From assembly GCA_002495885.1 (NCBI GenBank), contig DAHG01000033.1, positions 18,477 through 82,476 on the forward strand: DNA of 64,000 bases. The letters run 5' to 3'. Below are positions 1 through 41,849 of the stretch, piece after piece; the first letter of the stretch is position 1; each line of letters begins with the position of its first letter. A model generated the notes under the pieces. That model saw only the letters and a program-made list of their open reading frames with translations, did not search any database and was not told the origin of the DNA. The translations under genes were made by a program, and so were the position numbers. Source of the DNA: Methanocellaceae archaeon UBA148 (GTDB lineage: Archaea; Halobacteriota; UBA148).

Positions 1-316
1 TATGATTGACCCAAAGCGAGAAGGATGAGCTTATATCATAAGATATATCACCTGGCTTTTCAACCACTTCAGAAATCTCAAAGCCACTGGCATGCCTTAA
101 TAGATCAGACATAAACGGTAATCCAAGCCTCTGTGCTGCCATCGGATGTATTGCTATGCATATCAGCCCGCCTGCATCTTTGCGCATAGTAGCAACGCGC
201 TTTGGAGTCGTAGCATGCGCTGGCATTACAATATCAGTCTCACCCTCTCGACAGTCAGAATCGTATAGTAACACCATACCCCCTTTCCTTAGGGATTCGA
301 TTGCCTTAGATATCAT
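1..316 (-). CDS. ribB: 3,4-dihydroxy-2-butanone 4-phosphate synthase, N-terminal part (gene runs off the window start)
   Basis: Not in the ORF track because there is no stop in the window. Minus-strand translation from ATG 316-314 gives MISKAIESLRKGGMVLLYDSDCREGETDIVMPAHATTPKRVATMRKDAGGLICIAIHP..., which is DHBP-synthase-like. ATGA overlap with the stop of the upstream riboflavin kinase gene. Confidence 0.8.
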   Translation of the reverse strand, partial: MISKAIESLRKGGMVLLYDSDCREGETDIVMPAHATTPKRVATMRKDAGGLICIAIHPMAAQRLGLPFMSDLLRHASGFEISEVVEKPGDISYDISSSFSLWVNH

Positions 317-969
317 AGCAGTACCTTCACACTAAGTTGATCACCATTCTTCAGTCCCAATGCATTCCTCAGATTTTTTGAGGAGGTGACCTCCAACAAG
401 TCATTTGGATAATGAGACCTATCTGGAATGATGACAGCGCCTTTTGTCTTACCAATGATGACGTGGAAGCACTTACCTCCACCGAACGTTCGACTTTCAG
501 AGGGGAAACCATGTATTGGGATGCCACTGCTTTCGTCCAGTCTTTTCCTGAGAACGGTGCTCTTGTCGGTTAACATAAGATTCAAAGTGCCTGGATACGG
601 CGTGAATCCAAGTTTGCTTTCAAATTGGTTTTTATATCCCTCCAGCGATATATAGTATTGACCTTCTCCGAGACCTGTGACCACCTTTCCATGAAGTTCA
701 ATTTCCTTACCAGCTGGCTCAAAAATCTTTTGATATTCATAGTATTCACTTCTCAATGCATCTTTGCCGCTCTGGGTTATTAGGATCCGTTGTCCTTCTG
801 GAACGAAGACTCTGGAAATCAATCCCCCTTTTTCAAGAGCTTGTAGTCGACGAGATGCGGTTTGGGGGCTGGATGAGATTTGCTGAGCGAAGTCAGAAGA
901 GGATATCTGGATTTGTTCTCGAGTGGCACCTAGTAATGCCAATTTTTTGAGTGCATTGGTGTAAGCCAT
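313..969 (-). CDS. ribK: HTH-fused CTP-dependent riboflavin kinase (RbkR-type bifunctional regulator/kinase)
   Basis: The N-terminal ~80 aa look like a winged HTH (ISSSDFAQQISSSPQTASRRLQALEKGGLI). The C-terminal part carries archaeal riboflavin kinase motifs (GLGEGQYY, FTPYPGTLNL, GGGKCF). Confidence 0.8.
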   Translation of the reverse strand: MAYTNALKKLALLGATREQIQISSSDFAQQISSSPQTASRRLQALEKGGLISRVFVPEGQRILITQSGKDALRSEYYEYQKIFEPAGKEIELHGKVVTGLGEGQYYISLEGYKNQFESKLGFTPYPGTLNLMLTDKSTVLRKRLDESSGIPIHGFPSESRTFGGGKCFHVIIGKTKGAVIIPDRSHYPNDLLEVTSSKNLRNALGLKNGDQLSVKVLL

Positions 970-992
970 AATAAATCCTCAATTTTGATTTG

Positions 993-1010
993 CATATCAA
1001 TATTGATATG
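993..1010. promoter_or_regulatory. Perfect 18-nt palindrome CATATCAATATTGATATG, 24 nt upstream of the ribK/rbkR start codon
   Basis: Read directly: CATATCAAT is the reverse complement of ATTGATATG. It sits between a TTTAAAG-type TATA-like element and the ATG at 969. Confidence 0.4.
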
Positions 1011-1043
1011 GCAGGGCTTTAAAGTTTACGCTTTGCTTAGCCT

Positions 1044-1119
1044 TGCACAAAAAGTGGCTATTTTTCGGGACTTTTTGTGCAGACTTGAGACTTTTTGTGC
1101 AAAAGGCACTTTATGTGCA
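1044..1119. promoter_or_regulatory. Four copies of a 12-13 nt box (TGCACAAAAAGT and its complement) in the ribK upstream region
   Basis: TGCACAAAAAGT at 1044-1055. GACTTTTTGTGCA at 1069-1081 and again, identical, at 1089-1101. Degenerate CACTTTATGTGCA at 1107-1119. Confidence 0.4.
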
Positions 1120-1233
1120 AAGCTGCCTTGCTTTATATCACCCACATATCCATGCGCAACTCGTATCGGCTCTGGAAGTTTATGCCCGCGCAAGCAATGT
1201 CGAACTATATCAATCGTAGAATTCAGAGAGACC

Positions 1234-1782
1234 TTATGCCCCCGAAGCTATGATGATCGGATTACAACCTTTTTTGGATAGGAGGGATGCACCAATATAT
1301 TGGTCATGCAATATTATTGGACTATACTCCCCGCTGTTTATTGGCTTCTCGACAATACCGCACAACAACTTCTTTGCAACACCTATTGTTGCCATATCCA
1401 GAGCTACGCCAATGTGCGTCGCAAGTCCCGCTGACCTAGGATGATTGATGCCGCACCCATCGACCATTAATAAGTCGGGTCTTGTCTTCAAAGAGCGAAA
1501 GGCACTGATGATTGCAGGACCTTCCCTGAACGAAAGAAAAGAGGGGATATAAGGGAATTCAACCTCTTTTATCGAATACGTTTTTTCAATAACGTCCATG
1601 GTACCATAGTCCAGGATGACGATCCCAGAGATGATTTTGTCATCGAGAAATGCCTGGTCTACTCCTGCTATTGTCTTTAAATCTCCAAATTTATCCTCCA
1701 CCAATGCACAAGACGCAACAATTTCCTGAGCCGTGATAAGCGATCCAAAATCTTTTTCAGATGGAAAAATAGCTCTTTTCAT
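1234..1782 (-). CDS. nfi: Endonuclease V
   Basis: IAGVDQAF, FPYIPSFLSFREGPA, VDGCGINHPRSAGLATHIGV and TIGVAKK motifs typical of EndoV. Confidence 0.85.
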   Translation of the reverse strand: MKRAIFPSEKDFGSLITAQEIVASCALVEDKFGDLKTIAGVDQAFLDDKIISGIVILDYGTMDVIEKTYSIKEVEFPYIPSFLSFREGPAIISAFRSLKTRPDLLMVDGCGINHPRSAGLATHIGVALDMATIGVAKKLLCGIVEKPINSGEYSPIILHDQYIGASLLSKKGCNPIIIASGA

Positions 1783-2126
1783 TTCATATGCTCAAGGCTT
1801 TTCAACACCTTTTTTCCTTTATCAGTAAGATGATAGATCAGAAAGTTACCATCACGCTTTGAATTAATTAGATCAGCGCCTGTCAACTTTTTTAGGTGAT
1901 ACGAAAGTGCTGAGTGCTGATGCCCTGTTATTTCAACCAGAACACAAACACATAGGTCTTTGACCCCTAATGCCTTGAGAATGTGCAATCTGACAGGGTA
2001 AGATAGTATCCGGAGAATTGAAGTTACATCTCGGACATCTTCTTCTGCCGATGCTTTTACTTTTTTTAAAGTCTCTGGGGAGATGACATATTGGCGGATC
2101 ATCGAAATAGGACCTCGTTTCTTCAA
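1779..2126 (-). CDS. ArsR/SmtB family transcriptional regulator
   Basis: ILRILSYPVRLHILKAL...CVCVLVEITGHQHSALSYHLKKL, an ArsR-type wHTH with a Cys pair. 4-nt overlap with nfi. Confidence 0.8.
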   Translation of the reverse strand: MKKRGPISMIRQYVISPETLKKVKASAEEDVRDVTSILRILSYPVRLHILKALGVKDLCVCVLVEITGHQHSALSYHLKKLTGADLINSKRDGNFLIYHLTDKGKKVLKSLEHMK

Positions 2127-2233
2127 ATAATCTTCATCTAACGCGCCGCTTGGACGTAATCAATTTATTTTATTTTATATAAGCAAAGCGTGTGTATGCT
2201 CTTGATCTGCGACCTCCAAGAAAACATTTTTAC

Positions 2234-2413
2234 TCACTTATGACAAGCACTTGAATCAAAATAATGTCGGATTCTATTAAGTCTTGCAAGACCGATGACG
2301 TCCCCCACTCCTGCGTTGATGCCAAGTTCATCCAGCGCATCCTTCACGCGCCCCTCTATCATCTTGCATCTGGGGCAACTTGGCTCAAGTATTTTTATTT
2401 CTATATGTGTCAC
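2234..2413 (-). CDS. Small thioredoxin-fold-like protein with a CPRC motif (59 codons, possibly C-terminally degenerate)
   Basis: Below the ORF-track size cutoff. GTGA start/stop overlap with the DGC gene. VTHIEIKILEPSCPRCKMIEGRVKDALDELGI resembles the first half of redox-active disulfide protein 2. The expected second half (cis-Pro region) is not recognisable. Confidence 0.35.
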   Translation of the reverse strand: MTHIEIKILEPSCPRCKMIEGRVKDALDELGINAGVGDVIGLARLNRIRHYFDSSACHK

Positions 2414-2793
2414 CTCGCTTTTAATATCTCAGAAGAAACTTTGTCCACTACTTTCTTTACATCATCTGGATCAACAGATAGGTCATAGTTCTTTTTTACT
2501 TCCATCTCGGTAACTACTCCATAGATATCTACGCCAAATCCTGTATGCTCCAAAACTTTTTTAGAGCACTGGACCGGACATCCCTCAATTGCAACGATCT
2601 TCTTAGCAATTTTTGTCGATTCAATTAAATGGCTTACGTGTCCGCCAATACCTGCAAGGCAATATATTTTACCATGCCCCATCTTGGTCAGCTCTATTGC
2701 TGCTTGGTTTGCAATCTGCCCTACATTCGACCCGCCAGCGCAAGAGAATATTAGAGTCTCTATGGAGGTACAAAAACATTTACTCTTCCTCAC
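2410..2793 (-). CDS. DGC-domain (putative zinc-binding) protein
   Basis: IFSCAGGSNVGQIANQAA...YCLAGIGGH...IEGCPVQC. I prefer the GTG start at 2793, 2 nt after the stop of the upstream small ORF, over the track start at 2871. Confidence 0.7.
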   Translation of the reverse strand: MRKSKCFCTSIETLIFSCAGGSNVGQIANQAAIELTKMGHGKIYCLAGIGGHVSHLIESTKIAKKIVAIEGCPVQCSKKVLEHTGFGVDIYGVVTEMEVKKNYDLSVDPDDVKKVVDKVSSEILKAR

Positions 2794-2797
2794 GTTC

Positions 2798-2962
2798 TCA
2801 TTCCTCGCAGTCAAAACATTGAACTTTTTCGCCGTTCTTGTTAGTCCAAAACTCCTTTCCACACTCAGCACATTTTACTTTGCTTAGGGTCGATTTATTT
2901 TCCATGTACTTAGCCTGCTCTTGCATATAATGCGTACATGCACATGGTTCGTTGTTTTTCAT
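2798..2962 (-). CDS. Small zinc-ribbon protein (54 aa)
   Basis: Below the ORF-track cutoff. MKNNEPCACTHYMQEQAKYMENKSTLSKVKCAECGKEFWTNKNGEKVQCFDCEE has CxxC-x12-CxxC. Packed between the permease and DGC genes. Confidence 0.4.
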   Translation of the reverse strand: MKNNEPCACTHYMQEQAKYMENKSTLSKVKCAECGKEFWTNKNGEKVQCFDCEE

Positions 2963-2983
2963 TTCCACCCACTCCTCGGTAGT

Positions 2984-4048
2984 TTACATTCCAATCATAT
3001 ACCCAAATGCCATTCCTGACATCATGGACATTGCTATCACTAACAAAAGGTACAAAAACGCCCTCTTTGCGCCCATAATCCTACCAATGACGATCATGTT
3101 TGGCAAGCTCAGCGCAGGACCTGCCAACAGCAATGTCAGCGCAGGACCGCGCCCCATGCCAGAACTGAGCAACATTCCAACGATGGGTACCTCAGTCAGG
3201 GTTGCAAAGTACATGAGAGCTCCTGAAACTGATGCAATAGCGTTCGATGTTATTGAATTACCGCCAAGATATGTCTGAATTACCCAGATCGGAATAAGGT
3301 CAATTATGATTCCCGCTAGGAACACGCCAGCCAGTAGGAGAGGAGTTATCATCCTGACTAGGGTCCATGTTTCGCGCATCCACTCCTTCTGCTCATCTTT
3401 CGTGAGCCATTTAAAAGACAGGGCAATAGCGATTATGATGACCGATATAAGAGCCAGCAACTTGATACCCCATGTGATCTTGGAGGGGCCGATCACCAGG
3501 ATTGCGATCAACATTACGAAAATCGATGGTAGCCCATAGCTGGGTCTTTGATCATCTGTTGGTTGACCGGGCGGGGGTATTTGAACGTTCTCTAAAGCTT
3601 TCTCCCTATCGCGCATCTCAAATGCAAAAGCCATAACAAGACCGATAAGGATTGACAGTAATACCGCCGATAAAGCTCTTGCAACTCCAAGATCGTAGCC
3701 TATCACCTGCGCAGTGTAAACCACGGCAAGTATGTTAATCGCCGGGGCAGAATATAGGAATGCAGTTGCAGGCCCTATCCCAGCACCCCTTTTATAGATT
3801 CCAGCAAATAGTGGCAAAGCGGTACAGCTGCATACTGCCAGAAGACACCCACTAGTCGCAGCAATTGTATAGGATATGTACCGTTTAGTCCCAGCGCCCA
3901 GATATTTCAACAGCGATTCCTTGGACATCAGGGATGCGATGGCGCCTGCTAAGAAGAATGCTGGCACTAAGCACGTTAATACGTGAAAGGAAAGGTATTC
4001 TTTCAGCGAATCTATTCCAACCAAGAGCAGAGGCATTATGTCTATCAT
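2984..4048 (-). CDS. Predicted permease (UPF0718/ArsP-like, 8+ TM)
   Basis: Polytopic membrane protein with the GCLLAVCSCTALPLFAGIYKRGAG motif typical of this permease family. That family is commonly found with ArsR and thioredoxin-like genes. Confidence 0.75.
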   Translation of the reverse strand: MIDIMPLLLVGIDSLKEYLSFHVLTCLVPAFFLAGAIASLMSKESLLKYLGAGTKRYISYTIAATSGCLLAVCSCTALPLFAGIYKRGAGIGPATAFLYSAPAINILAVVYTAQVIGYDLGVARALSAVLLSILIGLVMAFAFEMRDREKALENVQIPPPGQPTDDQRPSYGLPSIFVMLIAILVIGPSKITWGIKLLALISVIIIAIALSFKWLTKDEQKEWMRETWTLVRMITPLLLAGVFLAGIIIDLIPIWVIQTYLGGNSITSNAIASVSGALMYFATLTEVPIVGMLLSSGMGRGPALTLLLAGPALSLPNMIVIGRIMGAKRAFLYLLLVIAMSMMSGMAFGYMIGM

Positions 4049-4065
4049 ATCACTCCAATAAAGTA

Positions 4066-4126
4066 TTTAAAAATATATTGAAATACCTTGACTTAAAGAT
4101 TATGGTTTAAAAATATTTTGAAATAC
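4066..4126. repeat. Two 21-nt direct repeats (TTTAAAAATATATTGAAATAC / TTTAAAAATATTTTGAAATAC), 40 nt apart, upstream of the permease operon
   Basis: Copies at 4066-4086 and 4106-4126 with 1 mismatch. Each contains a TATA-like TTTAAAAATA. They lie in the 77-nt spacer between the GT2 stop and the permease start. Confidence 0.6.
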
Positions 4127-4818
4127 TACTTTTCGTGCAGGTACTTCAAACTCCAATAAACGTAACGCAAACCATGTAGGATCTGCTTGAACCTATGGTG
4201 CGTGGAAAACTTGGTTTCGCCTATCCTCTCCCTAAAACCAACAGGGTTTTCTCCTACGCTCAGCCCACACTTCCAGATATTGTATAGTAGATCGTATTCA
4301 ATCTCAAATCCATTTGCAATTAAATTGGGAAGAATTTTATCAGCCGCATTTCTAGTAAAAACCCAGCAACCTGTCTGAATATCCGTCAATTTATACCCAT
4401 ACACCCATGAGGCAACAGTTGAAGTGAAACGATTTATGAATACTGAAAACCATCCAAGGAGTTCCCTCTGTCTGATTATATCACGGCTACCCAACAAAAC
4501 GTCAAAGTCGTTCTTCTCGAGAACTTTTAACATTCGCTTGACGTCCTTAGGATCATTGCTATAATCAGCATCGATAATACCAAGATGATCATAATTCGTA
4601 TTCAGGAATTCTTCCATAGCTGTTCGAATAGCACACCCCTTACCCTTGCCATATCTTTGGGTGATGAATTTCCAATTATACTTAAGTGCAACGTCCTTCG
4701 TTTTATCGGTCGAATGCCCATCCACTATCAGAACGTCAAACTCGGCAGGAATCTCGTCTGCCAATGCTCTTAAAGCCCCCTCTTCGTTTAGAGTGGGTAG
4801 TAATAAAAGCAAACTCAT
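4126..4818 (-). CDS. Family-2 glycosyltransferase (dolichyl/polyprenyl-phosphate sugar synthase-like)
   Basis: LPTLNEEGAL...VDGHSTDKT...GKGKGCAIR...IIDADYS, a GT2 signature. 4-nt overlap with sepS. Confidence 0.75.
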   Translation of the reverse strand: MSLLLLLPTLNEEGALRALADEIPAEFDVLIVDGHSTDKTKDVALKYNWKFITQRYGKGKGCAIRTAMEEFLNTNYDHLGIIDADYSNDPKDVKRMLKVLEKNDFDVLLGSRDIIRQRELLGWFSVFINRFTSTVASWVYGYKLTDIQTGCWVFTRNAADKILPNLIANGFEIEYDLLYNIWKCGLSVGENPVGFRERIGETKFSTHHRFKQILHGLRYVYWSLKYLHEK

Positions 4819-6359
4819 CTTTCAACCTTCACCGTAATAAAAACAGGGCCCCTGATATCTATCTTCTTGTTTTGGCCCTGTATATATCTGACCGCAACCG
4901 GATCGATTCTAAGATTGACATCAGAGTGCGACCTTGCCATTCTTGTTCGAACCTCACTGCATCCGTGTTCAATTTCATGCGCTGCTAATGCAGCAAATCC
5001 ATCGATGAATCGAATGTTGGTCTTAACGCCCGTATCAAGCAAATCCTCATATTTCTTTGTCTTGGGAACTCCGAAGATCGATCCATCATGGACCACAACC
5101 TCATTGAGAAAGGCGGGTCCGCAGAGCTTTGTGTTTTCCTCCGGTTCAACTATGTACAAAGTCACTTGCTCATCACCAAGCTCGCCTTTCCAGGCATCAA
5201 ACCTACAGGGAGATGGCTCATTTCCGTGCTCCTCACAGGTCTCGACTATCGCTTTGGCGATTTCCTTCCCGACAGCCGTATCAGGTGTCTTATCGAGGGA
5301 TGTCATCCCTGCAATTTGCTCGTCGCTAAGATGGAACTCAGCGTATATTTCTGGGAAATGAACCTCTCGTATATCAGAGATGTTCTCGGATATCATGATA
5401 ATCCTGCCCAATCCAGGCCCTGAGTTAAACACAGGATACTTGAGGTCATAGTTAGCGAGAGAGACAGGCGAGTACATGCCAATCTCCGTAACTTCAACCC
5501 AACCTATTTCGGGATGTTTGACGAAAACCTCATAGTTTGTCCCAGGTGCATAGTAAGCAGGATTACTTGGTTTATGCCTAAATTTTACCTCATACCCCAT
5601 TCGACGGAAAAATTCCTCGGTGATGTATTTTCCGTCGTCTATGGTGAGATTTTCGTCCATGACCACCATGCTTAGGTTGTAGTGCGCTCTCAAGTGTGTC
5701 GAATCCTCTTTTTGCTCTCTCCGAAAACGCCATCCAGCGGTGAACAACATCACAGGCAAATCTCTTTTGTCTTGAACAGCCTGAAGCGTCGGAAACCAGG
5801 CTGTTGTGATGTGGGACAATAAGGTCAGGGAAGAGGGCGTGGGCTTGATATCTTTTAGTTCCAAAAATATCTCGTTGATTAAATAATGCGCGTCCTCTGT
5901 TTTTATGCCCAACCTAGTGATCAAAGCCTCGGTAAAATCCTCTCCACCTACGATATTTTCCCTCTTATAATCCCTCAGGATACCCTGGAGTTCCTCAAAT
6001 TTATCGAAGCCCTTGAGTTTCCCCTGGATCAGTTTTTTCTTCGCGTCAGATAAGCCAATGTCTGGTCTGGGAAGAGTTGCAAGATAATACAGACGATCCA
6101 ATATTGCTGGTGCCTCGGGCCCATACTGAAGCCGAACGTGTTGTTCTTCCCAAATTGGCTTGAGCACAACCTCATCAAAGCCCATGTCCAGAAGGAGGTC
6201 TCTGGTTTTATCCGAATAGATCGTGATCAGATGTTTTTTGCCCTTCCTCTTTGGAAACGTAAAGCTCCTTTCCCCAATAACAAATCTTGCCGTTTCCAAC
6301 CAAGTCTTCTCAAAATCCTTTTTTGCCCGCTCTTTGATGTTGCTTGGATCAAATTTCAT
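4815..6359 (-). CDS. sepS: O-phosphoseryl-tRNA(Cys) ligase (SepRS)
   Basis: MKFDPSNIKERAKKDFEKTWLET... with a class II core, read by eye as SepRS-like. I prefer the ATG at 6359 over the track's TTG at 6374. Confidence 0.85.
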   Translation of the reverse strand: MKFDPSNIKERAKKDFEKTWLETARFVIGERSFTFPKRKGKKHLITIYSDKTRDLLLDMGFDEVVLKPIWEEQHVRLQYGPEAPAILDRLYYLATLPRPDIGLSDAKKKLIQGKLKGFDKFEELQGILRDYKRENIVGGEDFTEALITRLGIKTEDAHYLINEIFLELKDIKPTPSSLTLLSHITTAWFPTLQAVQDKRDLPVMLFTAGWRFRREQKEDSTHLRAHYNLSMVVMDENLTIDDGKYITEEFFRRMGYEVKFRHKPSNPAYYAPGTNYEVFVKHPEIGWVEVTEIGMYSPVSLANYDLKYPVFNSGPGLGRIIMISENISDIREVHFPEIYAEFHLSDEQIAGMTSLDKTPDTAVGKEIAKAIVETCEEHGNEPSPCRFDAWKGELGDEQVTLYIVEPEENTKLCGPAFLNEVVVHDGSIFGVPKTKKYEDLLDTGVKTNIRFIDGFAALAAHEIEHGCSEVRTRMARSHSDVNLRIDPVAVRYIQGQNKKIDIRGPVFITVKVER

Positions 6360-6467
6360 GATTCTACATCCCAAAAGAGGATATTGTGGATATATTCTAT
6401 TATAAATTATCTATATGAGTCACTCTTTTATAGTAGAAATCACATATCAACATCTTAGGTGTTATTG

Positions 6468-6581
6468 ATGGCAAAAAAAGAAGAACAGGGTGAAGAAAAG
6501 CCAAAGGCAGAAAAGACAGAGATAGCGGGTTCAAAGGGAATCGTTACTAAGATAAAAAAATTATTCAGTAGAGGCAAGTGA
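6468..6581 (+). CDS. Possible 37-aa lysine-rich small protein
   Basis: AGGTG lies 6 nt upstream of the ATG. Product MAKKEEQGEEKPKAEKTEIAGSKGIVTKIKKLFSRGK. Below the track cutoff, and its 3' end overlaps the convergent taw1 stop region. Confidence 0.2.
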   Translation: MAKKEEQGEEKPKAEKTEIAGSKGIVTKIKKLFSRGK

Positions 6582-7490
6582 AATCCTCTCGACATTACCT
6601 TTCTTAGATAGAAGCACAACTCTACTAACCTTAGAATCATCAGCGATCTGGTAGCCAGAGGCATAAGCTAAATGCTCAGCGAAATTTAGAACGCTGGCAT
6701 GAGAAGGCATAGCACTTCTAGGAAGCCTCTGTCGTGAGAAGCCCAAGTGCATGTATGCCTTTGTTTCTATGTAATCCGGCTCTGCCTTATCTATCAGGCG
6801 CGCATATTTTTCCAGCTCTTTCAGATTTAAGCCTTCTACGAGCGTGATTCTGATTACTGTCCGCGTATTTAAAGTGGACAAAAGTTCTAAGGATTCATTT
6901 ATTTGTGACCATCTATCTTGGATGGGATTGCAAATTCTGGTATAAGTCTCTCGGTCCGGCGCATTCAAGGAGATATATAGTTGCGTGGGTTTTACTTTGG
7001 CAAGCATTTCCGGGTTCGTCCCGTTCGTCACGAGAAATGTGCTCATTTTACGCCTGTGAAATTCGTCGATCAACTCTGCCAGAAAAGGGTATAAAGTCGG
7101 CTCGCCCACAAGGGATATCGCCGCATGCCGAGGATGTTGTGCCTCCTCAAGTTTACTGAGATTTGTCGTAGCTGACCCGGCATAGCCTGAGATCAATCTC
7201 ATCTGTTCACCCATACAGCCGTCCACAATGGTCTCAGGAGGGTCCCATTCGTGTTTGGGCATGATCATCTCTACGGGCCGCCAACAGAAAAGGCAGCGAT
7301 GATTGCACTCCAACGAAGGGGTCATCTGTAAGCACCTGTGAGAGGATATGCCATAGAATTTCGACTTGTAGCAAACACCTTCGTCTCTGAGAGATTTTTT
7401 AAGCCACAGGCAGGGCTTGACTGCGCTATGCTGCCCTATCAAATGATGTCCTTGTTTCCCAAGCAGATGTGCATAATTCTCTTGCTGCAC
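6561..7490 (-). CDS. taw1: tRNA 4-demethylwyosine synthase (radical SAM, Tyw1/Taw1)
   Basis: CNHRCLFCWRP radical SAM cluster motif, preceded by the CYKSKFYGISSHRC region typical of Taw1. Confidence 0.85.
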   Translation of the reverse strand: MQQENYAHLLGKQGHHLIGQHSAVKPCLWLKKSLRDEGVCYKSKFYGISSHRCLQMTPSLECNHRCLFCWRPVEMIMPKHEWDPPETIVDGCMGEQMRLISGYAGSATTNLSKLEEAQHPRHAAISLVGEPTLYPFLAELIDEFHRRKMSTFLVTNGTNPEMLAKVKPTQLYISLNAPDRETYTRICNPIQDRWSQINESLELLSTLNTRTVIRITLVEGLNLKELEKYARLIDKAEPDYIETKAYMHLGFSRQRLPRSAMPSHASVLNFAEHLAYASGYQIADDSKVSRVVLLSKKGNVERISLASTE

Positions 7491-7706
7491 GTTCTAAATC
7501 TCCTGTTTCTAAATCTACGATGTAGAATTGGATCTAGCGCAGATTAAATATAATGTATTTAACTCTAAGAAATAGTTTCGCTGCGTACATATCAGATTAG
7601 AGATTGTATTGGATGTACAATATATTCTGGAAGGGCGCAAAGGATAAGATAATTGAGATATATGGTAATATAAGCAACAAATAACTGAGCAAGATAAACA
7701 ATCTTT

Positions 7707-7729
7707 TATATATATATATATATATATAT
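7707..7729. repeat. (TA)11 microsatellite
   Basis: Read directly in the A+T-rich spacer upstream of the TIR gene. Confidence 0.9.
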
Positions 7730-7838
7730 TTAGCATATAGAGTTAAAATAAAGAAATAGTTTAGATAGAAATAGTTGTAAGCAAGCTTAAAAGTAAAAAT
7801 GAGGATAAGCGTTAGAATAAGTATTGAAGGGTATCACC

Positions 7839-10426
7839 ATGGAAAAGAGTAAGAAATTAAAACTTTTTATTTGCTACTCACATAAAGACAATTCTAGTGA
7901 TAATCCCTACGTAGAACAATTCAAAGAACATATCGCTCCGCTCAAAGATTTAATAGAAGAGTGGTATGATCGCGAAATTTTACCCGGCGATGATTATCAA
8001 AATCAAATTGATAATAATTTAGAAGAAGCAGACATAATTTGTTTATTTATCTCATCACATTTTTTTTATTCAGATAGCTGTAAAAAAGAAAAAAAGAAAG
8101 CATTGGAATTGAGAGAACAGAAAGGAATTCCAATTATTTCAATCATTTTGTCCGATTGTGGGTGGTTAGATGATGAAGATATTTCTAAGACATTAGTTTT
8201 GCCCACAGATGGAGAACCTGTCTCAAGTTTTCAAAATCGAGACGAAGCATGGTATGATGTTTACATCGGATTAAAGAAAGTAATCGAAGAAGAGATAAAA
8301 ATTAAGCAATTAAAAATAACAGAAGAATTTGAAAATTTTTTATAAGATACAGAGATTCTAAAAGAAGCACACCCTAAAAAAGAAAGAGTTTTTTTAGATG
8401 ATGTATTTGTACCTCCTGAGTTAAGTAAATATGATATTTTAAAAGAAGAAGAAAACATAGGTGCAGATGAATTATTTGAAAATATCTTAAATTATCCAAA
8501 GATTGTTATAGCTGGAGAAAGCCAATCAGGTAAAACAACTCTGTGTAAAATGATGTTTAAAGAGTTGCGAAAGAAGAATTTTTTTTCCTGTGTATGTATC
8601 TGACGAGAAGAATCAGTTCAAAGGAAAAATAGAAAAAAGAATATTAACTTCACTTCGTAAACAATATGAGGGGGGCGATATAGGTCAAATTGATAGAAAG
8701 CGAATAATCCCCCGAATAATCCCGATAATAGATGATTTTCATTTTGCTAAGGATAGGGAAAGGCATATTAAAGATTTATCTAAATATCCCCGCTGTATCC
8801 TCTTTGTTGATGACATTTTTTGTTTGAACATTGAAGATGAAAAACTGATTGGGCAATTCTCTCATTTTAAAATAAAAGAATTGACATCTTACCTAATTTA
8901 TAGATTCATTAAAAAGTGGGTAGGCTTAACAGATAAAGAAATAGATATTTACAAAGAAATAGATACTTACAAAGATATTGATCAAAAAATAGAAATAATA
9001 AAATCCGTTTTAGGAAGAAATATCGATAGAGGGATTATGCCAGCATATCCCTTTTTTATTTTATCTACCATAGTTAATTACGAAACATTTTCAAGTAAAT
9101 TTGACCAAGAAATAACATCTCAGGGTCACTGTTATCAGGCTCTTATATATTTTTATTTAGGGAGACATGGTGTAAGAGTTGATGAAATTGATACATACAT
9201 GAATTTCCTAACAGAGTTTGCTTCCTATATTTACAGAGAGGAGAAGTATGAGATATCTCCTGATAATTTTACCTCATTTATGGAGTTGTATTTGGAAAAA
9301 TATAATCTTCCAATAAATCAAGAGATCTTAATTGAAAAATTAAGTCCAATAGTTTCAGTGGATAGCTTTAATAATTACTCATTTAAATATCCATACTTTT
9401 ATTACTTTTTTGTTGCTAGATATCTTGTTGAAAATATTGAAGATAACGAAGTAGAGAAAGAAATAAAAAACATAATAGGTAGTCTTCATGTAGCTAAAAA
9501 TGTCTATATTGCAGTTTTTATGGCTCATCATTCTAGAAATACCAAAATCTTAGGAGAACTTGAAAAGAGTGCGGAACATTCATTTAATGAATACAAACCT
9601 GTAACATTTGTAAAAGATGAAGTTAAGTTTTTTGATGAACAAGAAAAAATTATTGTTAAAGCAGTTTTGCCACCTGCCAGTACAACACCTGAAAATGAAA
9701 GGATGAAAAGATTAAAGATTGAAGATGAACAGGAACAGCATCAAAGAGATTTAGAAAAAAAAAGAAAAAGTCGATGAAGAAGATTTTTTGGAAATAGGAT
9801 CTTTGGAAATAGAATTAAGGAGAGCTATTAGGACAGTAGAAGTTATGGGGTGCATTATCAAAAATAGGGCAGGCTCATTAGAAAAAACGAAACTTGAAAG
9901 AATATTTGTAGAAGGAATGAATGTTAACTTAAGAATTTTATCCTATTTCTTTGGAATGATAAAAAGTGAAGATATAAGCAATGCCGTAATTGATATTATA
10001 TCAGAAAGATTAATAAAAATAAATGAAGAAAGCAAAAGCGAACTAAGTGACGAAAATCTGCGCAAAAAAGCAAAAAAAAAATTTTGGAATTTGATGTTTG
10101 ATGTTACGTATGCTATCGTTAATAAGACTGTTCACTCGTTAGGTTCAGATAAATTAACTGCAATTGTTGAAAAAGTTTGTTATGAAGTTAACACTCCCGC
10201 CTCTTTCTTGGTAAAACATGGGATTTTAATGTGGTACAATAAGAATCCACAAATTGATGAAATTGAAAAAAAGATTAAGGAAAAGGACTTTTCCAAAATA
10301 GCAGAAATGATAATAATCTCAATGGTTGTGAATCATTGCTCTGAACATCCAATTAGTGCTAGAGAAAAACAAAAAATTCAAGACACATTGAGAATTCCGT
10401 CAAGAAAACTTTTAAAAAGAGGTTAA
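7839..10426 (+). pseudogene. TIR domain / P-loop (STAND-like) NTPase defence-type gene, disrupted by an in-frame TAA and two +1 homopolymer shifts
   Basis: TIR-like N-terminus (KLFICYSHKD...DREILPGD...ADIICLFISS...SCKKE). TAA at 8343-8345, after which the same frame stays open with no start codon and encodes IVIAGESQSGKTT. The frame then shifts in T8 (8579-8586) and in A9 (9755-9763). Walker-B-like IIPIIDDFH. Confidence 0.7.
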
Positions 10427-10532
10427 TGAAGGATTATGGAGGGGATTCATATTAGAAAAATCTTCATCAAATGTTTTGCTTAATCTTCAACTAAACATAT
10501 TTATTTAGCATTGTGCTTTAATGTAGATTTGA

Positions 10533-13469
10533 ATGGAAAGAGACGAGTTCTTAAAGATTTCATTAATATTGTCGGCTTCGCTTATCGTCAGAGTTCTACT
10601 TTTTCCTGCCGAAGGCTATTACATAGACACCAACACGTTTACAGCCTGGCATGCCTCTGCAGCAGAGGGACTGCGTACCTTCTATGACAGGGGGTGGTCA
10701 GATTATCCTCCTTTCAGCATCTACATATTCTGGATATTTGGAAAAATCGCCAAGTACTTTTCGCTTTTCAATACCAGCCATTTTGTTTATTTGTTAAAGC
10801 TGCCTTCAAATCTCTTCGACATGGGCATCTCTCTTTTTATTTTCTTTTTTTTACGTAAAAAAATCGGTTTTAACCATGCCGCTTTCATAATGGCAATCTA
10901 TGCCTTCAACCCGGCAACCATTTACAACCTGGCTGTTTGGGGGCAGATGGATTCGATTTACACCTTTTTCATGATCTCTTCCATAATATGTCTCATCTAC
11001 AACAAGCCGGAATTGTCAGCCTCTTCTCTCGCCATAGCCATGCTAACCAAACCCCAGAGCATTGCCATTCTACCAGTCATAGGCTTCTTCATCATCAAGA
11101 AATATGATGTAAAGAGGATAATAACATCTCTTGCAGCTTCTGCTGCCTCGGTTTTTCTCGTCATCCTGCCCTTTAGATGGAGTAACCCCCTTGAATTCCT
11201 GATTAACATATATTCTACCGGCTATGGATACTATGCTTTCAACTCGGTAAGCGCCTACAATATCTGGGCATTTGCCGGTCTTTGGAAGCCAGACTCGATA
11301 GAATTGCTGTTTTTAAGTTGCCATGTATGGGGCATCATCTTGTTTGGGGCGCTTGTGTTGTTCGTGCTTTATTGCCTAAACAAAAGAGATGACACGGAAT
11401 CGCTGATCTTCTCCTCCTTCTTGCTCTCTCTCGGATTTTTTATGCTGATGACAAGGATGCATGAAAGATACATGTTTCCAGTATTCGCCATTTTGGCTTT
11501 AATCATGAACCACGAAAAAATAAAGACGATCTATAGCACCCTGGCTGCCACATACCTATTCAACTTGGCATATATTTTGAGTTTTATCAGTGAAGATAAC
11601 TTCGTCCCTGACAATGATGCATCTTTAATAATTTTACCCTTGATAAATCTGGCAATACTCGTATATTCCATGTACATCATGTATTCAACTCGTTTTCTTA
11701 AGAAAATAGAACTGAAAGATGATGGGCTCGATTTAAAAAAGCCTGACCTGAAAAAGTTAGTAGAGATGATTCCTGATAAGGAGGTCGTGAGTAAAATCAA
11801 GATTACAAGGCGAGACCTTGCAGTGATGTTTATTCTCACCGTCACCTTTTTTTCCATCACAGTTTTCAACCTGGGGGCCACAGAAATGCCAGCAACAGAG
11901 TGGCATCCCATAAACGAAGTAGAGAGCTTTTACATAGACCTTGGATCTGTGCAAACCGTCGACGGAATTGCAATTTTAATCAAAGACGAGAATTCCACAA
12001 CGGTGAATATTTACTGCGGAAGTCCGGATCATTGGAATTTTTCTATAAATTATGCAAGATCAGGAGTCTACTATTTCTGGGATGATGTACCGATAAGCAG
12101 TTTTGACGCCCAGTACGTCAGATTTGACTTTGAAGATTCTTCGGCAGAGATCCTAGAAATAGCAATATTTGGCAACAAAAAGAAACTCGAAATAAAAGAT
12201 ATAATTGATAGATATGAAAATGCCCAGTCAGATGGAAGGCAGTTAAAGAACCTGATAGATGAGCAGGTTTTAGTGGAAGAGCCCCTGACCTATAGGTCAG
12301 GCACATATTTCGATGAGATATATTTTGTGAGAACTGCTTATGAACATCTGGATTTCAAAGAGCCTTTTGAGTGGACTCATCCCCCACTCAGTAAACTCAT
12401 AATAGCTGGTGGAATTCTCTTATTCGGTTCCAATCCATTTGCCTGGAGGATAATAGAAGTGCTAGTTGCCACGTCAGTAATCCCGATCATGTTCATGTTC
12501 GGCAAGAAAATTTCCGGGACTTCTCTCGGGGGATTTATAGCCGCATTTCTCATGACATTTGACTTCATGCATTTTGCAGAAACCAGACTAGCAACAGGGG
12601 ATACGTTCATATTCTTTTTCTTGATCCTAATGTTCTACTTTTTCTTCGATTATTTCCAAGGAGCCTTTAAAAAGGGCTGGAAAGAGGCGGGTCTACCCTT
12701 ATTTTTAAGCACCCTGTTTTTTGGTCTTGCCATCTCAACGAAGTGGTATGCAATGTACGGGTTTATGGGGATGGCTTCTCTGTTTGTCCTCCTAAAACTA
12801 AAAGAATTTTCATCGATTGAAAAGAAGGATAATGTGCAAAAGTACCTATTTTACCCCCTATTGATCGTCTGTTTTTCCCTGGCAATTTCGATAACCATCT
12901 ATATCCTGACATACATACCCTACATGCTGGCAGGCCATAGTTTAGGGGATGTGATAAACCTCCAGTTTACCATGTACGGGTATCATTCGTCTCTCACTGC
13001 ATCACATCCATTCGCATCACCTTGGTGGAGCTGGCCCTTAATGCTCAAACCGATGTGGATTTACAGCAATACTTTAGATGGAATCGTTTCAACCATCGTT
13101 TTGATGGGGAATCCAGCCATATGGTGGGTCGGTATAATCTTCTTAATTTTAACAGCCACAAAAATGGTGAGAGACAGGGATAAAACCTGTATGTTCATAG
13201 TAGTGCTGTTTCTTTCCCAGTGGATCCCATATGTCCCGATTTCAAGGGCGTTATTTATATATCACTTCTACGCAAACTTGCCTTTTATGGTTCTGGCTAT
13301 TACATATTGGATGAATAATTTGTGGAATGAGAAGACAAAATGGTTAGTTATCGCGTATTTGGCGGTGACATTGATTTTGTTCCTTATCTATTATCCAGTG
13401 ATATCCGGATACCCCATAGCATATGAATATAAAGAAGGTCTGAGATTGTTAGAAAATTGGATATTTTAA
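10533..13469 (+). CDS. 978-aa membrane glycosyltransferase: two GT-C-type modules separated by a discoidin/F5-8-type-C-like domain
   Basis: The N-terminal module has GYYIDTNTF...WSDYPPFSIY (Gpi18/ALG6-8-like first-loop motif). The central part reads SFDAQYVRFDFEDSSAEILEIAIFG (about 11925-12180). The C-terminal module has YFDEIYFVRTAYEHL (PMT/GT39-like DE motif). More than 15 predicted TM helices. Confidence 0.65.
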   Translation: MERDEFLKISLILSASLIVRVLLFPAEGYYIDTNTFTAWHASAAEGLRTFYDRGWSDYPPFSIYIFWIFGKIAKYFSLFNTSHFVYLLKLPSNLFDMGISLFIFFFLRKKIGFNHAAFIMAIYAFNPATIYNLAVWGQMDSIYTFFMISSIICLIYNKPELSASSLAIAMLTKPQSIAILPVIGFFIIKKYDVKRIITSLAASAASVFLVILPFRWSNPLEFLINIYSTGYGYYAFNSVSAYNIWAFAGLWKPDSIELLFLSCHVWGIILFGALVLFVLYCLNKRDDTESLIFSSFLLSLGFFMLMTRMHERYMFPVFAILALIMNHEKIKTIYSTLAATYLFNLAYILSFISEDNFVPDNDASLIILPLINLAILVYSMYIMYSTRFLKKIELKDDGLDLKKPDLKKLVEMIPDKEVVSKIKITRRDLAVMFILTVTFFSITVFNLGATEMPATEWHPINEVESFYIDLGSVQTVDGIAILIKDENSTTVNIYCGSPDHWNFSINYARSGVYYFWDDVPISSFDAQYVRFDFEDSSAEILEIAIFGNKKKLEIKDIIDRYENAQSDGRQLKNLIDEQVLVEEPLTYRSGTYFDEIYFVRTAYEHLDFKEPFEWTHPPLSKLIIAGGILLFGSNPFAWRIIEVLVATSVIPIMFMFGKKISGTSLGGFIAAFLMTFDFMHFAETRLATGDTFIFFFLILMFYFFFDYFQGAFKKGWKEAGLPLFLSTLFFGLAISTKWYAMYGFMGMASLFVLLKLKEFSSIEKKDNVQKYLFYPLLIVCFSLAISITIYILTYIPYMLAGHSLGDVINLQFTMYGYHSSLTASHPFASPWWSWPLMLKPMWIYSNTLDGIVSTIVLMGNPAIWWVGIIFLILTATKMVRDRDKTCMFIVVLFLSQWIPYVPISRALFIYHFYANLPFMVLAITYWMNNLWNEKTKWLVIAYLAVTLILFLIYYPVISGYPIAYEYKEGLRLLENWIF

Positions 13470-14843: not shown

Positions 14844-16550
14844 TCACATCGATTCCGGAGCTATTATCCCCAGCAAATTCAAGACATTAGCCAAAACAAT
14901 TCTTGCGCATTCCACGAGGGCTAGTCTCGCTTTTCTCGTATCACCCTCCGCCTTAAGCACCGGGATATGGAGATAGAACTGGTTGAACTTCTCAGCAAGC
15001 TCCCGGGCATAGGTGGCAACGATGTTCGGCTTCAGATCATGTGCAGCAGAAGCTACAATGCTGGGGAAGAAAGCCATCTTCTTGATCAGCTCTACTTCAC
15101 ATGGTTCTTTAAGCAGAGAGGGATCGAAATCTTCCAAGCTGGCTTTGCTAAGAATGCTACACGCCCTGGCATGTGCATATTGAATGAAGGGAGCGCCTTG
15201 CTTCTCAAAATCAAGGGCCTCTTCCCACTTAAAAGTAATCATTTTTTCAGGAGCCACCTTAACGGTGTCAAATCGGACCGCCCCCATCCCAACGATGCCT
15301 GCTATCTTTCGTTTTTGATCTTCTGGTAGATCAAGCCTTCTTTTTTGGACCTCTATGTAAGCCCTATCAAACGCCTCATCCAGCAGATCATCGAGATCTA
15401 CGACGACGCCAGCTCTAGTAGACATCCGACCTTCAGGCAATGAGACAAACGAGTAAAACACGATTTTAGGCTCCCTTTCGATTCCAAGTATTTTAAGAGC
15501 TGTTTGTAACTGGGACATTGCCAGTTTCTGGTCCTCACCAAGCACGTTTATAACGACATCGGCGTGATCAAATTTCCAGATATGGTATGCTATGTCTCGG
15601 GTGGTGTATAGCGTGATGCCATCGGAACGTGTCAGTACGAAGTCCTTCTCAAGTCCAAATTCCCCTAGGTCAAGCGTTAATGCACCATCCCTTAGAGAGA
15701 CATATCTTGTCTTTTTCAGTTTCTCGAGGATTTTACCTACAGACCCGTCTCTCACAAATTGAGATTCCCACACAAATCGATCATAGTGGATATCGATTCT
15801 CTCCAACGTTTGTCTTTGACCCAGCATGCAGTTTTCCACTACTTTCTTGAATTTCTGAATGGTCTCAGGATCGCCAGACTCGTACTTTGCCAGAATCCCG
15901 CTGACTTCTGTATCTATTTTCGGATCTTCAGAGATGAGTTCGTTTGCCCTCCGATAGTACCTTACTACATCATGATCGGACTTACCAAGCTCACGTGCTG
16001 GTTTTGGTAGAGTGTTCGGATCAATTTTATCGTATCCCCAAACGATAGTGGCTATTTGCTTGCCCATGTCATTTACGTAAAACTGTGTATCGACCTCATA
16101 GCCCGCTCTCCTAAGAATTCTGGCAAGGGTGTCACCTATTATCGGATTCCTGCCCCTGCCAACATGGAGAGGCCCAGTAGGATTGACAGAGGTGTGCTCC
16201 AAGATGATTCTTTCATCCTTTTTGGGCAAAGAGCCATAATTCTCGCCCTCTGTGGAGATTTTCTTGATGATATCTTCCAAGAACCCCGTATTGACATAAA
16301 AGTTGATGTAGGGGCCTATGACATCTGCTTTGTCAATATAGGACCCTTTTGGAATTTGAATTTTTTTAAAGATTTTTGTTGCGATAGTTTGGGGGGACTC
16401 CCCGTATTTTGAGGAGAGTTTGAAGGCCAAAGAAGAGGCTATATCTGCATGTGCTGATGTCTCTAAGCACATATCTTCGGCACCATATCCTGCCGCTTCA
16501 ACCGCTTCCCGTAATAAAGATTTGACTCCATTTTTAAATTCTGGGAACAT
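14844..16550 (-). CDS. argS: Arginine--tRNA ligase
   Basis: SVNPTGPLHVGRGRN (HIGH-type motif) and ArgRS-typical length and C-terminal anticodon-binding domain. Its start shares 1 nt with the prf1 stop (TGATG). Confidence 0.9.
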   Translation of the reverse strand: MFPEFKNGVKSLLREAVEAAGYGAEDMCLETSAHADIASSLAFKLSSKYGESPQTIATKIFKKIQIPKGSYIDKADVIGPYINFYVNTGFLEDIIKKISTEGENYGSLPKKDERIILEHTSVNPTGPLHVGRGRNPIIGDTLARILRRAGYEVDTQFYVNDMGKQIATIVWGYDKIDPNTLPKPARELGKSDHDVVRYYRRANELISEDPKIDTEVSGILAKYESGDPETIQKFKKVVENCMLGQRQTLERIDIHYDRFVWESQFVRDGSVGKILEKLKKTRYVSLRDGALTLDLGEFGLEKDFVLTRSDGITLYTTRDIAYHIWKFDHADVVINVLGEDQKLAMSQLQTALKILGIEREPKIVFYSFVSLPEGRMSTRAGVVVDLDDLLDEAFDRAYIEVQKRRLDLPEDQKRKIAGIVGMGAVRFDTVKVAPEKMITFKWEEALDFEKQGAPFIQYAHARACSILSKASLEDFDPSLLKEPCEVELIKKMAFFPSIVASAAHDLKPNIVATYARELAEKFNQFYLHIPVLKAEGDTRKARLALVECARIVLANVLNLLGIIAPESM

Positions 16551-41776: not shown

Positions 41777-41849
41777 AGCCCGGTGGTGTAGTGGTCAATC
41801 ATACAAGGCTCTGGACCTTGTGACTGCGGTTCGAATCCGTACCGGGCTA
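41777..41849 (+). tRNA. tRNA-Gln(CUG)
   Basis: Acceptor AGCCCGG/CCGGGCT, anticodon stem CAAGG/CCTTG with loop CTCTGGA, T-loop TTCGAAT, discriminator A. Folded by eye. Confidence 0.85.

Follow-up and report, generated by a model that had tools for sequence, protein, structure and literature searches.

Positions 7839-10426 (forward strand) of the 64,000-nucleotide stretch of Methanocellaceae archaeon UBA148 DNA analysed here, to which we refer as the window, very probably hold a recently inactivated copy of a horizontally acquired, single-gene NLR-like antiviral sensor. Three-frame translation of 7700-10500, the list of open reading frames (ORFs) and the raw sequence together resolve this region as one gene of about 860 codons, encoding a TIR domain, a P-loop nucleoside triphosphatase (NTPase) of the STAND/NACHT-like kind and a helical C-terminus, now broken over three reading frames (Table 1). 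The original prediction had joined four consecutive reading-frame segments into one protein and described it as an immune gene acquired by an archaeon. It is partly supported overall: the single gene, its domains and its transfer stand, whereas its description as live, archaeon-specific or Avs-like does not.

The TIR-STAND gene and its inactivation

The first of the four segments carries the TIR motifs KLFICYSHKD, WYDREILPGD, ADIICLFISS and SDSCKKE, and the second, also in frame 0, carries the Walker A motif AGESQSGKTT (8511-8540) after VFLDDVFVPPEL and before a T run. The third is a 395-codon stretch in frame 1 (ORF 8590-9777) with the Walker B motif IIPIIDDFH (8716-8742), a GIMP motif, an HH motif and a long helical region; the general patterns GxxxxGK[ST] for Walker A and hhhhD[DE] for Walker B are both satisfied. 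That the four segments form one protein is confirmed by the syntenic orthologue described below, which is an intact ORF of 860 amino acids (aa), and by the best 120 of 911 homologues, which are nearly all full-length single ORFs; no family of separately encoded segments was found.

A search of related genomes for an intact orthologue found one at the same site. It lies in the syntenic locus (L001) of a metagenome-assembled genome (MAG) of a Methanocellales archaeon (STD1_76), whose DNA is 91-95% identical to window positions 1-10783; a genome scan places the 860-aa orthologue (P0001, L001 10001-12583), with 81% protein identity to the window copy, at the same place after taw1. Lesions were located by pairwise DNA alignment to this locus. 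The three that had been implied by the original prediction, an in-frame nonsense codon and two frameshifts, are all present, but a fourth change had been overlooked: a 12-nt tandem duplication at 8701-8724 that is missing from L001 and from 24 of 24 aligned homologues. Where the window copy has TAA at 8343, most of the 24 aligned homologues have Q and the others R or N.

The lesions recur on a second contig (ENA ERZ27315071), which matches window positions 5590-12777 with one single-nucleotide polymorphism (SNP, at 7274) and no gaps, so that every lesion is present there; the exact 395-aa fragment is also encoded on it, and the style of its name (k141_) is typical of MEGAHIT short-read assemblies. 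Given the intact syntenic orthologue and the lesions on this second contig, the window copy is most likely a real pseudogene and not an assembly error. Translation terminates just past the TIR domain, two frameshifts divide the NTPase and four residues are duplicated at Walker B, so that the system is non-functional and decaying. The proposal of an immune gene is to that extent overstated, as a pseudogene gives no immunity here, and with the gene dead it has little import for this genome.

Substitution patterns also support a real pseudogene. Measured against the L001 orthologue, the gene has a ratio of non-synonymous to synonymous rates (dN/dS) of 0.67, whereas taw1 and the O-phosphoseryl-tRNA synthetase (SepRS) gene have ratios of 0.16 and 0.11; at columns that are invariant elsewhere, 9 substitutions are peculiar to the window copy and 1 to the sister copy. 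Weighing against the reading of a decayed gene are two relative-rate tests, one with the nearest outgroup (P0002), in which the window branch has 66 changes against 58 (not significant), and one against the consensus, in which it has 74 against 46 (p=0.013), only a modest excess; the two lesion-bearing contigs, moreover, might stem from overlapping read sets. The modest excess implies that the high dN/dS is partly the gene's own property in both lineages, and we conclude that the gene probably evolves fast in both and was inactivated recently. Long-standing pseudogenisation was dropped as an explanation, the excess with the nearest outgroup not being significant. Programmed recoding (read-through plus two +1 shifts) was also rejected, since all three sites are absent from the orthologue.

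It is improbable that the remnant still partly works, with the 168-codon TIR ORF (7839-8345) retained as a stand-alone TIR protein after loss of its regulatory NTPase. This ORF has its own start codon and upstream region, ends at a domain border, keeps all TIR motifs including the candidate catalytic glutamate E84, and is the part best preserved relative to the orthologue (dN 0.035 and dS 0.07, compared with 0.10-0.12 and 0.12-0.21 for the rest); ThsB-like lone TIR proteins of similar size also exist, and the ThsB1 profile match has an E-value of 1.1e-26. However, the counts behind these rates are small (6 synonymous and 14 non-synonymous differences, dN/dS 0.5), no ThsA-type partner lies in the immediate neighbourhood of the gene, whose flanks are the housekeeping taw1 and PMT glycosyltransferase genes, a TIR domain without its switch would be inert or toxic, and decay is the simplest reading of three lesions and a duplication. 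Slightly less probable again is an intact gene in which errors of sequencing or assembly account for all three lesions. In its favour, each frameshift comes from one extra base in a long homopolymer run (T8 or A9), the gene is very rich in A+T, the protein, lesions aside, remains close to the orthologue in identity, and the relative-rate test shows little extra decay, but the ERZ27315071 contig, from a different assembly, has all the lesions and its one SNP elsewhere, the TAA arose by a C-to-T substitution and not by homopolymer slippage, the 12-nt duplication is present too, and the remaining ORFs of the window are densely packed and unbroken. We therefore retain the recent pseudogene as the preferred reading.

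Table 1. Coordinates, in the window, of the gene segments, the lesions and the surrounding features.
Feature	Position	Strand	Details
TIR segment	7839-8342	+	168 codons, frame 0; ATG at 7839, TAA at 8343-8345
Linker and start of NTPase	8346-8586	+	frame 0; own start codon absent; contains VFLDDVFVPPEL
Remaining STAND NTPase, helical/winged-helix region and charged linker	8587-9763	+	frame 1
C-terminal all-helical bundle	9764-10426	+	~210 residues; frame 2, 212 codons; stop TAA at 10424-10426
Lesion 1, in-frame nonsense codon TAA	8343-8345	+	CAA (Gln) in L001; C-to-T substitution
Lesion 2, T8 run	8579-8586	+	T7 in orthologue; +1 frameshift, frame 0 to frame 1
Lesion 3, A9 run	9755-9763	+	one base longer than the orthologue's AGCAAAAA; +1 frameshift, frame 1 to frame 2
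12-nt in-frame tandem duplication CGAATAATCCCC/CGAATAATCCCG	8701-8712 / 8713-8724	+	adds IIPR, giving RIIPRIIP just upstream of the Walker B strand
Low-GC cassette (variable slot)	7629-10485		2.9 kb; taw1 side ends at ~7628, PMT side starts at ~10486
Non-coding leader of cassette	7629-7838	+	common to L001, not to sister genome L016
taw1/TYW1	6561-7490	-	immediate neighbour
PMT-family glycosyltransferase	10533-13469	+	978 aa; immediate neighbour
SepRS (O-phosphoseryl-tRNA synthetase)	4815-6374	-	519 aa; beyond taw1; orthologues carry Pfam tRNA-synt_2d and SepRS_C
argS	14844-16550		568-aa ORF; farther off than the PMT gene

Profile and fold matches, and relation to known systems

Hidden Markov model (HMM) searches used the window protein repaired in silico (861/862 aa), which gives both TIR and P-loop matches. 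The TIR-like domain proposed at 7839-8342 is confirmed by Pfam TIR_2 (PF13676; 49.9 bits against a cut-off of 28, E=5.4e-13, residues 10-107), with PF01582 TIR also passing (24.0 bits against 21.3), and by fold matches to TIR structures. Pfam gives several weak P-loop/STAND matches, including nSTAND_NTPase4 (PF24406) at 20.9 bits against a gathering score of 27; relatives with other effectors score 29-48 bits with this model, and most close homologues have a precomputed match to it. Beyond the TIR domain, query residues 151-853 match NCBIfam DS8_antiphage (NF053861) at profile positions 301-994 of 994 (435.5 bits, E=3.6e-130), and residues 148-854 match PADLOC PDC-S60 at model positions 177-889 of 906 (E=1.9e-59). 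Residues 9-159 give the PADLOC ThsB1 match cited above, and the PADLOC scan at E<=1 returned only PDC-S60, ThsB1, SAVED_TIR, Csx3, mad8 and VakA.

For fold comparison, an AlphaFold2 model of the intact orthologue, and not of the broken window gene, was used (predicted local distance difference test score, pLDDT, 73.6; confident domains, floppy linkers). Its top PDB match in Foldseek is the plant TIR-NLR RPP1, followed by NLRC4, NLRP9, NLRP14 and the NLRP3 NACHT (E 9e-6 to 2e-4, probability 1.0), which supports a nucleotide-binding domain, helical domain and winged-helix fold of the NLR/AP-ATPase type; the P-loop NTPase assigned from its Walker A and Walker B-like motifs is thus upheld by HMM and fold matches alike. 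The TIR part of the model matches AbTir, RPS4, PdTIR and L6. The candidate catalytic glutamate (E84 in the window protein, in SDSCKKE; E86 in P0001) lies in an SxxCxxE motif after the third strand, aligns with the glutamates of Cat1 (9mud, 3.3e-5) and PdTIR (3h16), and is invariant in 25 sequences and in both alignments (A1 and A2). When the family profile was run against PDB sequences, TIR domains alone (Cat1) came up, and nothing for the NTPase or the C-terminus. The window's own 212-aa C-terminal segment is modelled by AlphaFold2 as ten helices (pLDDT 86.6; predicted template-modelling score 0.81), in agreement with the helical C-terminus first proposed, and the earlier remark that it holds no recognisable motif is matched by a fold search of this model, which gave no significant PDB match (best E 0.1, to designed helical repeats and 14-3-3 proteins). 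The orthologue model also has a counterpart over its whole length among predicted viral proteins, the 822-aa BFVD entry A0A8S5V3T3 from Siphoviridae sp. cteDy1 (Foldseek E 4.3e-6 over 799 aligned columns), which implies that STAND proteins built along similar lines occur in a phage or prophage.

One of the closest known systems is DS-8 (DefensePredictor system 8, NF053861; DeWeirdt et al., Science 2026). This system consists of a single protein, whose anti-phage activity has been validated in E. coli and whose N-terminal metallophosphatase (SMPDL3A-like) and NACHT-type NTPase are both needed for defence (PMC13092281). Like DS-8, the window gene is a single-gene system; its NTPase and whole C-terminal region align end to end with the DS-8 profile, and searching with the orthologue brought up the true DS-8 relatives P0238 and P0260. 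Unlike DS-8, it has a TIR domain of ~150 aa in place of a ~300-aa metallophosphatase, so that profile positions 1-300 are unmatched, scores below the equivalog cut-off of 790 bits (as does P0001, at 457.5 bits), and is a pseudogene in an archaeal host. Because the effector differs and the score falls below the cut-off, the gene is not a DS-8 member, but by its sequence it shares with DS-8 one clade of NTPase and C-terminal modules and probably falls in the nSTAND_NTPase4 group of Pfam. The match to PDC-S60 (PADLOC-DB 2.0.0) is similar in extent, and there too the first ~176 model positions are unmatched, the N-terminal domain of the model being different; no published test of this candidate was found in our literature search.

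Resemblance to other STAND proteins is more distant or confined to domain order. As in plant TIR-NLRs (the RPP1 resistosome, 7crc), a TIR domain precedes a STAND module over ~590 aligned columns (E 8.7e-6, probability 1.0, orthologue model), the TIR catalytic glutamate is conserved, and an oligomerisation-activated NADase logic might be expected by analogy; identities of 11-14% and global TM-scores of 0.12-0.17 to plant TIR-NLRs, NLRC4 and NLRP3, however, indicate superfamily-level kinship only, and a helical bundle of ~210 aa stands where the leucine-rich repeat (LRR) sensor of plant and animal NLRs would be. With Avs/AVAST and bNACHT STAND proteins (Gao et al.; Kibby et al.; PMC13581612) the gene shares the single-gene order of effector, STAND NTPase and C-terminal sensor, and its family shares modular N-terminal effectors including TIR, SIR2, nuclease and protease. 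Its C-terminal bundle is nevertheless far shorter than the sensors of at least 400 aa analysed in PMC13581612, and is not TPR, WD40 or LRR by fold search. No AVAST model matched in the PADLOC scan (E<=1), for which reason the gene is not a member of Avs1-5 and the term Avs-like, as first applied to it, does not hold in its strict sense; nor could the TIR-type family be mapped to any named Avs family in PMC13581612. The TIR domain itself is most similar to Thoeris ThsB1 and CRISPR-associated Cat1, with the glutamate aligned, but here it is fused to a STAND NTPase and has no ThsA-type gene beside it and no CARF or CRISPR link.

By analogy with DS-8, Avs/bNACHT proteins and plant TIR-NLRs, we infer for the intact protein a mechanism in which the TIR domain would act as the effector, the STAND/NACHT-like NTPase as the switch and oligomeriser, and the helical C-terminal bundle as the presumed sensing or autoinhibitory part. 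A virus- or infection-derived cue, sensed through the C-terminal region, would relieve autoinhibition; the NTPase would then bind nucleotide and drive oligomerisation, and the clustered TIR domains would form composite active sites at the conserved glutamate and hydrolyse NAD+. Depletion of NAD+ would cause the infected cell to arrest or die before the virus completes its cycle, as in abortive infection.

Breadth, modularity and conservation of the family

The family to which the gene belongs is broad. The best 120 of the 911 homologues obtained in a word-indexed search are mostly 845-870 aa long (range 817-920, with two at 817-818 aa), have 57-81% identity, and come from Nitrospirota, Kryptonium, Atribacteria, Petrotoga, Methanoperedenaceae and Methanosarcinales; genome matches add Methanoculleus, Methanomicrobiales, Thermodesulfobacteriota, Bacteroidetes and Ignavibacteriaceae. 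An exhaustive search, with one representative protein per 50%-identity cluster, yielded 1,206 representatives from bacteria and archaea at E<=1e-30. Most of the top representatives are of the TIR type, and other members share only residues ~150-858 (the NTPase and C-terminal module), which stand behind different N-terminal domains: an Mrr-type nuclease, SIR2, a trypsin-like protease, a conflict-system nucleotidyltransferase, a PGAP1-like alpha/beta hydrolase, RelA/SpoT plus TIR, or a metallophosphatase. The metallophosphatase forms (P0238 and P0260) score 950 and 986 bits with the DS-8 profile, above its equivalog cut-off. The validated DS-8 can accordingly be placed, as one of the effector variants, within a modular STAND family of far greater size, in which TIR is the commonest form among the top representatives, and the window gene can be seen as a decayed member of a catalogued, widespread and mostly bacterial kind, neither archaeon-specific nor new.

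Residues expected to be functional are strongly kept. Across 110 diverse full-length TIR-type representatives, the TIR glutamate (107/110), the Walker A lysine (108/110), the Walker B aspartate (108/110), the proline of the GxP motif and the HH pair are retained in 103-108 sequences. The homologues are stand-alone genes without a conserved partner, often beside HicAB, MNT-HEPN, Schlafen-like or AAA genes. The defence-type architecture that had been proposed is thus supported by the modular conflict-domain effectors, by the validated DS-8 with its shared NTPase and C-terminal module, and by the toxin-antitoxin neighbours. That the family is instead a regulatory or housekeeping STAND ATPase with a TIR-like flavodoxin-fold domain is highly improbable: the gene has housekeeping neighbours here and follows the Fpo operon in Methanoperedenaceae, its C-terminal domain is conserved and not hypervariable, and Foldseek also lists flavodoxin-like folds (WrbA, dehydroquinase) with weak E-values for the N-terminus, but the effector position is swapped among conflict domains (nuclease, SIR2, protease, nucleotidyltransferase and metallophosphatase), anti-phage activity has been validated for the metallophosphatase form, the gene has a patchy distribution, is low in guanine-plus-cytosine (GC) content and is absent from close relatives, and its neighbours include toxin-antitoxin and Schlafen-like genes.

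Other points on the opposite side of the balance from an NLR-like antiviral sensor concern its proposed workings. In the 110 representatives, the variability of the C-terminal bundle (entropy 2.60 bits) does not exceed that of the NTPase core (2.72 bits), and a short (~210 aa), conserved bundle is unlike typical arms-race sensors, which makes its sensing role uncertain. NAD+ hydrolysis, oligomerisation and the trigger are all transferred by analogy, and the TIR domain resembles ThsB, which makes signalling nucleotides instead of depleting NAD+; a ThsB-like signalling role is possible, but the lack of any conserved partner effector gene nearby makes it less likely. In addition, our literature search found no experimental test of any TIR-type member of this family. 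To that extent the earlier statement that archaeal TIR-STAND proteins are uncharacterised stands, but they are no archaeal novelty, being mostly bacterial, very widespread and already included in nSTAND_NTPase4 and PDC-S60. The antiviral sensor remains our preferred reading of the family, and the intact orthologue at L001, together with the archaeal members in Methanoperedenaceae and Methanoculleus, provides candidates for TIR-NLR-type immunity in archaea.

Base composition and divergence bear on the family's spread. In every locus the gene has a GC content of 0.23-0.35 compared with 0.36-0.64 for its host (in Methanoculleus, 0.335 compared with 0.644), and bacterial and archaeal copies are ~60% identical. 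This uniform A+T-richness, combined with ~60% identity across bacterial and archaeal phyla, indicates rapid recent transfer between the domains. In a deltaproteobacterial MAG the homologue is interrupted by an insertion of ~1.07 kb (L005 12173-13240) with IS630-like transposase fragments on the opposite strand, which is an independent inactivation within the same family. Two further ENA contigs (L012 and L013, 1023-3973) share an identical TIR-STAND gene with an upstream 152-aa ORF and two small downstream ORFs before diverging completely, a pattern that suggests a mobile unit of ~4 kb or a chimeric assembly.

The low-GC cassette and its site

Comparison of sequences supports the arrival of the gene by horizontal transfer, as a 2.9-kb low-GC cassette. 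Its GC content is 0.295, compared with 0.431 for the rest of the window, and values of 0.28-0.31 extend across 7500-10500 with 0.40-0.49 on both sides. The A+T-richness relative to the flanks that had been noted by eye is therefore borne out by computation, but argS is not a flanking gene, as had been supposed; the PMT gene adjoins instead. Break points in the alignment of the flanks with a sister genome (GCA_976012005.1, L016, ~90% DNA identity) define the borders of the cassette. Horizontal acquisition, as originally proposed, is further backed by an empty site in one relative, by low GC whatever the host, and by the ~60% identity between bacterial and archaeal copies noted above. On the taw1 side, the cassette begins with a non-coding leader, probably a promoter region. 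Ahead of the TIR start codon, at about 7706-7729, this leader contains a (TA)n run that exceeds its L001 counterpart by 16 nt; this microsatellite sits where an archaeal TATA-type promoter would be expected.

Two relatives show other states of the same slot. In a more distant Methanocellales MAG (GCA_030016775.1, L015 1-2412, ~80% DNA identity), taw1 and the PMT gene are 85 bp apart and the slot is empty. The sister genome (L016 4998-7659, reverse strand) holds a different two-gene cargo of 28% GC within identical borders (~7629 / ~10485), encoding proteins of 317 and 515 aa for which no Pfam, PADLOC or NCBIfam match was found. The 515-aa protein has just 27 homologues; on two other contigs the homologue lies downstream of radical-SAM/SPASM and DUF2284 genes, and in one case it adjoins a type I restriction-modification system; the pair may be an undescribed defence cassette. 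The three slot states in related methanogens (TIR-STAND gene, other cargo and empty) offer a natural example of the turnover and decay of defence cassettes in archaea, and this slot, with its unannotated alternative cargo, forms with the TIR-type family itself the main lead from this analysis.

No integrase, transposase or tRNA gene lies near the cassette, the only tRNA gene of the window being at 41777, and no convincing direct repeat flanks it when the borders are checked for att-like repeats. The motif TATTTAGCA(T), at 7727-7736 and 10502-10511, was considered as an att-like repeat and rejected as evidence of site-specific integration, because its first copy lies ~100 bp inside the border and it resembles an A+T-rich promoter element. 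Exchange of the cassette would then most likely occur by homologous recombination through the conserved flanks. Extending this, and only as a tentative proposal that we consider possible but doubtful, the taw1/PMT site may be a recombination slot that swaps single low-GC defence cassettes (the TIR-STAND gene, the 317- and 515-aa pair, or nothing), and the TIR-type nSTAND4/DS-8-like proteins may represent an immune gene that has lately been spreading through bacteria and archaea; what their unusually short, conserved helical C-terminus senses would then be a cue shared by infections in the two domains and not a fast-evolving viral protein, and the two-gene cargo would be an undescribed archaeal defence system.

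Beyond the cassette, the SepRS gene on the far side of taw1 is in keeping with a methanogen host. Breaks in the blastn alignment between the window and the syntenic L001 reveal two stretches of extra DNA in the window, one of ~95 bp at 1034-1130 and one of ~560 bp at 2236-2800, the latter overlapping a 153-aa ORF at 2410-2871 on the reverse strand.

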